DNA of 64,000 nucleotides from Gemmatales bacterium (GTDB lineage Bacteria > Planctomycetota > Planctomycetia > Gemmatales > HRBIN36). The DNA is taken from contig JBEPZY010000008.1 of the NCBI GenBank assembly GCA_041640595.1, forward strand, positions 104,484 to 168,483, given 5' to 3'. The translations under genes were made by a program, and so were the position numbers. Below, piece by piece: positions 34,371-50,323 of this stretch. How positions within the stretch are numbered: position 1 is the stretch's first letter; every line of letters starts with the position of its first letter. A model generated the notes under the pieces. It was given only the letters and a program-made list of their open reading frames with translations, did no database searches and had not been told where the DNA came from.

Positions 34371-34451
34371 AATCGCGTGCCGATTCTGACGCTGGTACGC
34401 ATTGTGCTAACCGAGCATTTGTCAAAGCGGGGAAAGCTTTGCCGTAAACCC

Positions 34452-34675
34452 TTGACCAGCCAAGCGCAGAGGTATAGAGTTGCATGGAGATGAGGTGGAG
34501 CGCAGCGGAGGCGCGAGCACCGTACCCAGCCGCAGTGCCGTGCCGACTCGTCGCTTACCGACCTCACCCGCAATGGGTTGACGCGTGAGGCAGTCACCGA
34601 CTGGTTCACGCGGCCGCAGATGGGCATCGGTCGGGCGAGCTTCTGGCTCTGCCCCCAGCACAAGGATGAGCGACG
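34452..34675 (+). promoter_or_regulatory. csrA promoter and GGA-containing 5' leader
   Basis: TTGACC-17-TAGAGT (34452-34480). GGA hairpins at 34483-34492 and 34500-34514. The RBS reads GCACAAGGATGA (34658-34669). Confidence 0.55.
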
Positions 34676-34891
34676 ATGTTGGTGCTCTCGCGGAAAAAGA
34701 ATGAGTCCATCATTATCAACGACGACATCATCATCACCGTCGTCGAAATCCGCGGCGACAAGGTTCGCTTAGGAATCCAAGCGCCGGCCTCGGTTAGTGT
34801 TCACCGCAGGGAAGTTTACGAGGCGATCCACGGACACGCCCCGCAAATTACCCCTGCCAAGAACGAAAATTGTACCAAGCCGGCTGAGTAA
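34676..34891 (+). CDS. csrA: Carbon storage regulator CsrA
   Basis: [44 protein letters not shown], with Arg44 conserved. Confidence 0.97.
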
Positions 34892-47720: not shown

Positions 47721-48368
47721 TTACCGGCCGACGGAATACGTCATCATGTCCACTTCGGCAATTTCGCCGGCTCGGAAGCTAATCTGCCGCTCCATACGCT
47801 CGCCATTGGGCAATTCAACAGTCAGCGTGTAATAGAATGCTTTACCAGCTGGCAATTCGGGAGTGATGAAGGAGCGGCGAGATCCGGTCTGGCTGGTGGC
47901 TTGGCCGTCAATGTACAGCTTGGCGTCTTCCGGTACGAGCACGATCAGGCTCGCCTTATTGCCAAGGTCAGCCTTTTTCTCCTGGGGCTTCACCGGAATC
48001 TTTTCCGGCTTTGCTGGCTTAGCCGGTTCTGCTGGCATGGGGTGAGCGCCGACGCAAGCTGCACCGACGCACGCGGCGCGACGATGGTGTAGCCGGCTCA
48101 GCAAGCCACCATGGCAAGCACCGTGGCAAGCGGCCGCGCCATGACAAGCCGCTGCGCCATGGCAGGCACCTAAGCATGCCAGTCGCGCATGCAGCCGACT
48201 CAGCAGGCCACCGTGACACGCGCCGTGGCACGCGGCAGCCCCGTGGCATGCCGCTGCGCCGTGACATGCTGCTGCACCGTGGCATGCACCCGCGCAGGCT
48301 CCACCAAAAAGGGTCGCCGGTTGCGCTGTACCTACATTCAGAGCGAGAAGCAAGGTGAGGCTGTACAT
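47721..48368 (-). CDS. Secreted TIGR03000-domain protein with Cys/His (ACHG) repeats
   Basis: MYS..L signal peptide, nine ACHG units and a C-terminal ASLIVLVPEDAKLYIDG..RRSFITPELPAGKAFYYTL domain. Confidence 0.88.
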   Translation of the reverse strand: MYSLTLLLALNVGTAQPATLFGGACAGACHGAAACHGAAACHGAAACHGACHGGLLSRLHARLACLGACHGAAACHGAAACHGACHGGLLSRLHHRRAACVGAACVGAHPMPAEPAKPAKPEKIPVKPQEKKADLGNKASLIVLVPEDAKLYIDGQATSQTGSRRSFITPELPAGKAFYYTLTVELPNGERMERQISFRAGEIAEVDMMTYSVGR

Positions 48369-48612: not shown

Positions 48613-49134
48613 CTACCACACTGGCGGTTCGCCCGTGTGGCGTCCCAGCGCCTGGACTAACCAGGCCATCTGGCCAATGTGATTGTTCAGGTGCGAGGCA
48701 CACACAACCAGCAGACCAAATTGCGTGGCAATGGGATGGCGATCGGGAAAGTCCACGGGCTTGAGCATGGCTGACTCGTCCATGCTTTCGATAGTGCGCA
48801 CCACCAGGTCAATCGCCTCGCGGAATCGCTGCAGTATCTGCTCCCTCGGATAACGGTTCGGGTCAGTGAACTCCAGCGGTCGGTTGCGCACATAGCCAGT
48901 CCCCGCGATTCCTGCCCCGATGTAATGATTCAGGTTACCTGTCAGGTGCAGAACCAGGTGCCCCAGGCTGTTTCCAAATGGGAAAGGCTTGTCCCAAAGC
49001 TGTTCTTCGGGCACTGCTCGCACGTGTCGTTCGACGCGCTCTGCCAGATGGCGAAAGTATGCGACCAGTTCCGATTTGACCGTGGTGAGCAAGCTGACGT
49101 TACTGCCAGCGGCAGACAACTCGGCCTTGGTCAT
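48613..49134 (-). CDS. DinB/YfiT-like (DUF1572-type) protein
   Basis: NSLGHLVLHLTGNL, YVRNRPLEF, HLNNHIGQ. Confidence 0.85.
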   Translation of the reverse strand: MTKAELSAAGSNVSLLTTVKSELVAYFRHLAERVERHVRAVPEEQLWDKPFPFGNSLGHLVLHLTGNLNHYIGAGIAGTGYVRNRPLEFTDPNRYPREQILQRFREAIDLVVRTIESMDESAMLKPVDFPDRHPIATQFGLLVVCASHLNNHIGQMAWLVQALGRHTGEPPVW

Positions 49135-49473
49135 TGTTTCAGCCTCCAGCAAATGGGTCGGTTAGCATTGTGGCGATAAAGCCGGAAAGTGCCTGCCCCT
49201 TCGTCAGGCTCCAGCAAATGGCAGCTGTTTCTTTCGCTTCCCCGGTGCTACGACCGATCCTTGTCGCGTTCGCTGCCCCCACGCCGTGGGCGAGTGTGGC
49301 CTTGGAAGAAGAGGTACCACGTGTTGAACCAATGTCTGTCGTGTTCGCCGCCCGCACAGCCCGCTGTGTATGCGGTTTGCCCGGATTCTCAGCAATGCCC
49401 ACCGCGACGCCCGCATGAAGCCTGTGATTTCTGTCATAAAAACCGTAAGCACTGCCGATAGTTACAACTGGGC

Positions 49474-49503
49474 TTGCATCGGCACGCTAGTTTGGCATAT
49501 AAT
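49474..49503 (+). promoter_or_regulatory. Sigma70-type promoter
   Basis: TTGCAT (49474-49479), 18-bp spacer, perfect TATAAT (49498-49503). Confidence 0.6.
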
Positions 49504-49509
49504 TTTCTG

Positions 49510-49705
49510 GCTACGGATCAAGAGGCAGATCGGCGAGGGCTTCCCGCAGGCTCAGGAGGAGCCTGATTGGGCTACGGAGGGCCGAACCGGAACAGGGTGG
49601 GAGCCCCTGGCCCGCCTGGAAGCGGTCATTTCCTAGGGAATCCTACCTGTCAGGATTTGAGGCCGGTCGGCCTGAGTATCCCCTCACGGAAGAACGGACG
49701 ATCCT
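49510..49705 (+). ncRNA. Candidate CsrB/Rsm-like CsrA-sequestering RNA (or CsrA-controlled long leader)
   Basis: 11 GGA motifs in ~185 nt (four ACGGA, two CAGGA, one AGGGA), at least five of them in hairpin loops. No credible CDS. Starts right after the promoter. Confidence 0.55.
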
Positions 49706-49789
49706 TACTGCACTCTGATTCTGCGCCTGGTGTCGGCGGCCCGCGTGCCGTAGGGGACACGGGCGCGCGAACCCGTGGAGGGTTTGGCC

Positions 49790-50323
49790 ATGTTCGAACT
49801 TCCGTTCCTGGTCAGTTGGGTCTGGCTCTCGAATTCTATCGAGAGCGGGTGGTGGATTTCTCAACTCGGCCATTCGCAGTATCCCATCCGAGTTGCTGCT
49901 CATCGCCGGCTAGCCCAGCGTTTAGCCGATTCCGACGGTGTTCTTACCGTACATCTTCTTGAGGAAGCGCTGCAATCTTCGCATCCGGAAGTGATACGGC
50001 GAGCGCGGGATTTACTGGCACAATTTTACTCCCTCGAACCGAGCAACTATGCTGTCATGCCCTGGATCGATCAACTTCCGGAGCACTGGCCTGACCGTAA
50101 GGCTATCGTCGAAACTTACCTTTACCGTGCCCGGCAGCTGCTCGACAACGGTTACTATCAATCCGATTGGCCTGATTACCGGCTCGCTACCTCTTTGTAC
50201 GTTTTCGACCTGTTGCGTCAGGGCATGCCCCGCCAGGCCGTGCTGCAAATGCTCGACACGATGGTCGAGCGAGAAAAAGAATATCGCCGCAGCCGGGGCA
50301 TGAAAGAATTAGTGCGCGAGTAA
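49790..50323 (+). CDS. Hypothetical protein with HEAT-like segment
   Basis: GGAGG RBS and WISQLGHSQYPIRVAAHRRL..SSHPEVIRRARDLL. Confidence 0.7.
   Translation: MFELPFLVSWVWLSNSIESGWWISQLGHSQYPIRVAAHRRLAQRLADSDGVLTVHLLEEALQSSHPEVIRRARDLLAQFYSLEPSNYAVMPWIDQLPEHWPDRKAIVETYLYRARQLLDNGYYQSDWPDYRLATSLYVFDLLRQGMPRQAVLQMLDTMVEREKEYRRSRGMKELVRE

Follow-up and report, generated by a model that had tools for sequence, protein, structure and literature searches.

A conserved element was identified in the genome of a Gemmatales bacterium, within a 64,000-nt stretch of DNA that was analysed as a whole and is called the window here. Comparison of four congeneric species indicates that positions 49509–49692 of the forward strand are a conserved non-coding element, which is very probably a real structured RNA. 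This RNA probably binds CsrA, and chances are about even that it acts mainly as a CsrA decoy, either standing alone or as the leader of a 177-aa protein gene. If so, a sigma70-type promoter would drive an RNA in which a long-range helix closes off the first ~185 nt as a folded domain. This domain would present two A(N)GGA hairpin loops spaced by 21 nt, along with a further GGA loop, a 3' tail site, and species-specific extras. CsrA dimers would bind these GGA sites and be kept off the mRNAs that they target, probably those of flagellin and the csrA genes, and the RNA would relieve CsrA repression in a lineage without FliW. An RNA antagonist of CsrA had been proposed in a preliminary description of this DNA. 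We infer binding and titration from the conserved promoter, the structured RNA, the invariant GGA loops, and the presence of CsrA without FliW; the low predicted exposure of GGA speaks against them. The decoy reading leaves the invariant strands of the closing helix (P1) and an invariant 14-mer unexplained.

A conserved non-coding element behind a conserved promoter

The features of the locus are as follows.

48613–49134, reverse strand: divergent DinB-family gene, used as a synteny marker only
49453–49460, forward strand: 8-mer TGCCGATA, 5' of the −35 box, invariant in four of four species
49474–49503, forward strand: sigma70-type promoter, with TTGCAT (49474–49479), an 18-nt spacer, and TATAAT (49498–49503)
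49509–49692, forward strand: conserved structured RNA domain, bounded by the +1 predicted near 49509 and by the final invariant GGA site
49693–49789, forward strand: spacer of low conservation that contains a GC-rich hairpin and the ribosome-binding site of the 177-aa gene
49790–50323, forward strand: 177-aa protein gene, 3' of the RNA in four of four species

The order of the divergent DinB-family gene, the RNA element, and the 177-aa gene is identical in the four species. A BLAST search of 41 genomes recovered the element at 68–69% identity in three of three congeners, plus one chance match, and it is single-copy in the genome. The domain, with its +1 placed from the position of the −10 box, is 184–199 nt long across the four species (~185 nt in the window). 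In a sister-genus genome (G004), the DinB-family homologue is part of an operon that has no copy of the RNA. In a comparison with 400 kb of one congener, the element ranked fourth in conservation of 37 orthologous intergenic regions, after the csrA leader and two regions that resemble uncalled coding sequence; 32 of the 37 showed little conservation.

The earlier statement that no credible coding sequence precedes 49790 holds, as the sole scored open reading frame over the domain (49370–49636, marginal) is unconserved. Spacings between the invariant blocks (90/91/99/92 and 50/45/47/45 nt) differ modulo 3 and relatives carry stops. A small protein or leader peptide was rejected because the reading frame is not conserved among relatives. 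Rfam covariance models gave no match at gathering score anywhere in the window, and at E ≤ 10 the interval 49150–49850 returned only two chance-level matches to unrelated families. The 6S, SRP, RNase P, and tmRNA identities were rejected because the genome encodes each of these RNAs at another site, with a score above the cut-off. No Rfam aptamer model matched the element, and resemblances to SAM-I, lysine, glycine, and cobalamin riboswitches were dropped because Rfam found none.

The TTGCAT-18-TATAAT promoter is exact in sequence as first described. All four species keep TTGCA, the 18-nt spacing, and TA.AAT unchanged, and likewise TGGCA directly before the −10 box. The site was not listed by a generic promoter scan, and its −35 hexamer matches at only three of six positions. 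The strict promoter pattern has one intergenic match in the whole genome and two additional matches among 151 genomes, each within a gene; no shared regulon was found for the promoter motifs. A sigma54 reading was rejected by inspection (no GC at the −12 position). We infer from these features that transcription starts at this promoter, and the RNA ends are likewise predicted. The 8-mer TGCCGATA may bind an activator or belong to the divergent dinB-family promoter. A GacA/UvrY box had no match at up to three mismatches across the 3.4-kb locus.

Fold of the domain

The predicted fold comprises the following parts.

49523–49534, forward strand: 5' strand of closing helix P1 (11 bp, one A-G mismatch, one U-G pair)
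49535–49545, forward strand: left arm of P2, pairing with 49599–49608 or with a segment near 49636–49643
49547–49565, forward strand: hairpin H1, loop AGGAG (AGGA invariant), 7-bp stem
49570–49583, forward strand: hairpin H2, loop ACGGAG (A-N-GGA invariant), 4-bp stem
49593–49609, forward strand: possible hairpin H3 with loop TGGGAGC; alternatively the right arm of P2
49611–49624, forward strand: H4, an invariant 14-mer with a 3-bp stem and loop CTGGAA; a GGA site and possible pairing seed
49662–49673, forward strand: 3' strand of P1
49686–49692, forward strand: 3' tail site ACGGAAG (A-N-GGAAG invariant)

The domain had been drawn as a string of separate hairpins; it is instead closed by P1, an invariant long-range helix with strands ~130 nt apart. 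Ten of the 11 P1 pairs are invariant and one shows a C-G/U-G change. The pairing probability of P1 is ~1.0 in three of the four species; for the window sequence, it is 0.25 at 37°C. Its strands make up two of the three long invariant blocks, and the third is the 14-mer of H4 with its CTGGAA loop, identical in all four species and a candidate stem with zero covariation. P1 and H4 supply no covariation evidence because both are invariant.

The loops of H1 and H2 provide the clearest comparative signal. AGGA in H1 and ANGGA in H2 are invariant in four of four species, in agreement with the expectation that GGA loops would be kept in relatives, and the two GGA are 21 nt apart. Around these fixed loops, three of the seven H1 stem pairs and one of the four H2 pairs change on both sides. 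In a test on four related sequences, these were 4 of 25 pairs changing on both sides, a count reached by 17 of 500 shuffles and a covariation score reached by 2 of 500. We regard this covariation as suggestive. The GGA of H1 is unpaired with a probability of ~1.0 in three of four species, and the H2 loop is exposed only in the fold of the window sequence. Folding energy is not lower than in shuffled sequences (z −1.0 to +1.4).

Of the five hairpins listed initially, those with AGGAG, ACGGAG, and CTGGAA loops are conserved and the tca-GGATT-tga hairpin is not. The TGGGAGC hairpin (H3) stands in part: its GGA is present in two of four species, and the segment may instead be paired in P2. The RNAalifold consensus pairs the purine left arm of P2 with 49599–49608, which buries the TGGGAGC loop, and single-sequence folds of two relatives choose the segment near 49636–49643. 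A strain variant at 49595 disrupts one H3 pair. The repeat GGCTACGGA does occur twice, at 49509 and 49570, but is not conserved as an exact repeat in relatives.

GGA content and chance level

All 11 GGA positions reported from 49515 to 49696 are exact, and two further GGA occur at 49755 and 49777. Only 4 of the 11 are invariant in position (H1, H2, H4, and the 3' tail); the others turn over. GGA is nevertheless the commonest of the 64 triplets in all four species (9–10 per 184–199 nt), with 5–7 A(N)GGA per species. Three of the five invariant runs of at least 3 nt outside the long blocks are GGA sites, and the H4 block adds a fourth (alignment A2).

Genome-wide, 1,315 of 888,096 200-nt segments (0.15%; mean 3.3 GGA) contain at least 11 GGA, and because these fall at 229 places the density is unusual yet far from unique. 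Intergenic strand-segments (n = 3,106) were taken from simple gene calls that make ~77% of the genome coding and miss some genes; 51 of them have at least 11 GGA, 10 have at least 8 A(N)GGA, and 17 have at least 3 strict GGA loops. By a combined GGA score, the element comes second of the 3,106; only a tandem repeat scores higher. The element ranks first among 110 intergenic windows anchored on sigma70-like promoters, with a score of 25 on a measure devised after the element was known. A leader in another genome that we take to resemble a TPP riboswitch reached 19, and the measure is therefore unspecific.

GGA counts exceeded those of mononucleotide shuffles (P = 0.006–0.02) but not significantly those of dinucleotide shuffles (P = 0.08–0.26), against which A(N)GGA counts gave P values of 0.007–0.135. 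GGA density is 4.5–5.4 per 100 nt versus 6.0 in CsrB and 5.7 in CsrC (Escherichia coli controls), and A(N)GGA density is 2.5–3.8 versus 5.1–5.3. Between 1 and 3 of the 9–10 GGA have an unpaired probability above 0.5, versus 17 of 22 in CsrB and 7 of 14 in CsrC, in predictions that overpair GC-rich sequences. Opening the GGA loops by constraint costs 2–7 kcal/mol.

CsrA without FliW in the host and its relatives

The presumed ligand of the RNA is encoded in the window.

34676–34891, forward strand: csrA, 71 aa

Its location 15 kb from the RNA is as described before, and the distance is no evidence of linkage. The protein keeps R6, R44, and E46, of which R44 is presumably functional, and has no Asn at position 55. 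A second csrA paralogue lies on another contig. R6, E46, and N55 are reported to have roles in CsrA, and Asn55 is named as required for FliW antagonism (PMC11934962).

No fliW was found in the host genome (95% complete), which has two Flagellin_N matches. CsrA was present in 151 of 151 Gemmatales genomes searched (1–10 copies, mostly several) and FliW in 0 of 151. This expansion of CsrA paralogues looks unexplored. Across the phylum, 73 of 251 genomes have FliW, so the assumption that other phyla use FliW does not hold generally here; a 2015 survey proposed that Planctomycetes may use it (PMC4682653). Given CsrA in every Gemmatales genome, FliW in none, and decoys validated in Gammaproteobacteria, the question is what restrains CsrA in this order. 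The RNA is a concrete candidate antagonist with four defined sites, and it lends itself to tests in vitro and in E. coli that need no culture of the host.

Candidate targets would fit canonical GGA recognition. The ribosome-binding site of csrA is AGGA[TC] in 15 of 15 genomes of the family, and the flagellin leader contains GGA sites. In one study, a GGA leader was not repressed by around half of the CsrA homologues assayed (PMC13443453), and CsrA specificity therefore cannot be taken for granted.

Several leaders in these genomes have features of their own. The csrA leader (34431–34675, forward strand) is the best conserved of the 37 regions (86% over 145 nt) and has a TTGACC/TATAGA promoter and GGA sites; CsrA autoregulation and a structured leader are both possible. 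One flagellin leader (L073), behind a probable flgM-like gene, has one upstream GGA site plus GGA sites at the ribosome-binding site, an arrangement that we take to resemble Bacillus hag, though without FliW. In one sister genus (L063, L065, L068, and L069), the ribosome-binding site of the second csrA lies inside a short hairpin ~20 nt before the start. The loop of this hairpin, AAGGAT or AAGGAA by inspection, is the H1/H2 loop of two congeners. These sister-genus hairpins suggest that csrA paralogues may cross-regulate.

Distribution

A covariance model of the element (R2) had strong matches in only 4 of 150 genomes of the order, all of one genus. Six weak matches (E = 0.02–0.045) were rejected, five lying in or antisense to coding sequence and one at a gene start, none with a hairpin array. 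The same model found no homologue in 150 genomes of the phylum, where one weak match in a repetitive stretch was rejected; these wide searches scored 17 candidates per genome and may miss distant homologues. With 150 candidates scored per genome, zero of five sister-genus genomes had a match, and 2.28 of the ~3.7 Mb of G004 held neither a homologue nor a comparable promoter-anchored GGA array. An exact-pattern scan of genome contigs gave five matches (three true and two by chance, inside coding sequence), and a metagenome scan gave 11, of which 2 were true, from strains of the same species, and 9 were unmatched by the model. A repetitive, GC-rich, intergenic-looking element in another planctomycete genome (L106, 1500–1850) was a false model match.

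The covariance model across Gemmatales thus recovers the four congeners and has no strong match beyond the genus. The reach of the RNA is limited because it is found in one genus only, which tempers its significance, as does the existence of unvalidated candidates outside Gammaproteobacteria. Other FliW-less genera of Planctomycetia may use unrelated RNAs.

Relation to known CsrA-binding RNAs

The closest functional parallels are the decoys CsrB/CsrC and RsmX/RsmY/RsmZ of Gammaproteobacteria. The family, whose validated members are described from Gammaproteobacteria (PMC7652899, section 8), is also treated in PMC7366521 and PMC4682653. Like these RNAs, the element is non-coding, with its own promoter, many GGA, some A(N)GGA loops, and a similar GGA density. 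The family's conserved A(N)GGA hairpin loops have two counterparts here, on covarying stems, besides two further invariant GGA sites. Unlike the family, the element has fewer sites predicted to be exposed, an invariant long-range closing helix, no Rfam match, no GacA/UvrY box, and no evident intrinsic terminator, and it belongs to a different phylum. It is not a member of the RsmY or RsmZ family, and that it functions like them is an analogy that we consider evenly balanced.

GGA loops in a 5' leader also recall the CsrA-titrating mRNA leaders of Campylobacter flaA and Salmonella fimAICDHF. In the flaA leader, two neighboring loops place their GGA 21 nt from each other, the spacing also found between H1 and H2 (PMC4894983). 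These leaders differ from the element, which has 9–10 GGA in a large closed domain, precedes a gene of no known function, and occurs in a FliW-less lineage. TwoAYGGAY (RF01731), Bacillaceae-1 (RF01690), and Geobacter sRNAs are predicted, unvalidated CsrA-binding RNAs (PMC4333381, PMC11934962). The element is likewise a computational candidate with GGA loops and shares an outer stem with TwoAYGGAY. It differs from TwoAYGGAY and Bacillaceae-1 in having no model match, in phylum, and in its four invariant sites and invariant closing helix. The literature searched, in main texts and with few subscription journals, reported no planctomycete CsrA-binding RNA.

Small RNA or leader of the 177-aa gene

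The start codon of the 177-aa gene lies 241–281 nt from the predicted +1 in the four species. The AlphaFold model of the protein is all-helical (pLDDT 86.8), with no Pfam family and no PDB fold match at E ≤ 0.001; eight homologues were found. A decoy in the form of a stand-alone or processed small RNA is a tentative possibility, and one acting from the leader of the 177-aa mRNA is somewhat less likely. A different role for the same position, as a cis-regulatory leader of the 177-aa gene without global CsrA titration, is the strongest competing reading but rather unlikely. The closed multi-way junction would then be a switch, either CsrA-responsive or a riboswitch-like sensor of another ligand, in which the left arm of P2 swaps partners and thereby controls whether the 177-aa gene is translated, or whether Rho terminates its transcription. 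The constant position 5' of the same gene agrees with this, as do the two alternative partners of the P2 arm in all four species, and the invariant helix and loop sequences would be typical of ligand-binding folds. Against it, the region of the ribosome-binding site shows little conservation and gave no sign of a conserved pairing with the domain, no riboswitch family was matched in Rfam, and 177-aa homologues occur without such a leader in 3 of 136 genomes of the other family. The ribosome-binding site contains GGA in two of four species; with two sites lacking it, the GGA array is not merely a repression site for this gene.

The U-tailed terminator reported missing from the window is missing in all four species, which would also favor a leader, but the sign is uninformative here. 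U-tailed hairpins follow 34 of 376 convergent gene ends versus 23 of 376 coding controls, and none is evident after SRP RNA or tmRNA. Because such terminators are rare in this genome and Rho is present, the absent U-tract says little.

Four of nine listed RNA runs, mostly from hot springs, were examined as contigs without strand or ends. In the first, the whole stretch was covered in a DNA-like manner. The second had a contig (49524–49961) that extends from the domain into the 177-aa gene and so favors a leader, although one contig spanning both does not equal one single transcript. The third had a contig on the domain (49482–49670) with the next piece at 50170, and the fourth had no listed piece on the domain, an absence that proves nothing for a single run. 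The contigs are weakly indicative at best, being compatible with transcription and giving no sign of abundance. Contigs in all four runs also cover a gene at 47721–48368 (reverse strand) for a planctomycete-type protein with a Cys/His-rich tandem repeat (ACHGAA units), the length of which varies among strains.

The invariant 14-mer and other possible roles

The longest invariant stretches are P1 and the 14-mer rather than the ANGGA loops, which would suit an RNA acting in trans with another main job, such as a base-pairing sRNA with the 14-mer as seed or a scaffold for another protein. The GGA sites would then be secondary or reflect a purine-rich strand. In keeping with a seed, the 14-mer could by its sequence pair with the region around the ribosome-binding site of the second csrA paralogue, a match that ranks 7 of 2,877 genes. 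The core hexamer TCCAGG occurs there in three of four congeners, and none of 11 leaders of the paralogue in other genera has it. One of the four species has a broken pairing and two others a short one, the target test was post hoc (three blocks, four named genes), and such a role would not explain why A(N)GGA loops are invariant on stems that covary. We consider such a role quite unlikely, and the predicted pairing with the second csrA a weak lead.

That there is no functional RNA, and that the invariant blocks of this divergent promoter region are DNA sites (operators, or an imperfect inverted repeat) with GGA enriched by chance, is very improbable: GGA count and folding energy are no better than in dinucleotide shuffles and the RNA contigs are compatible with transcription rather than proof of it, but the compensatory changes in H1 and H2, G-U pairs workable only on the forward strand, the single genomic copy, and the conserved promoter directly 5' argue against it.

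The decoy reading and the pairing could also be combined. The RNA would be a CsrA decoy in a new, closed multi-way-junction form whose 14-mer also base-pairs at the second csrA paralogue's ribosome-binding site, which we consider improbable. If true, the RNA would control both CsrA protein and CsrA synthesis, and RNA decoys would have arisen independently in Planctomycetia after FliW loss. The 14-mer also has a predicted 13-bp duplex with the start region of a small membrane-protein gene (G000 C2, ~556339), which ranks 3 of 2,877.
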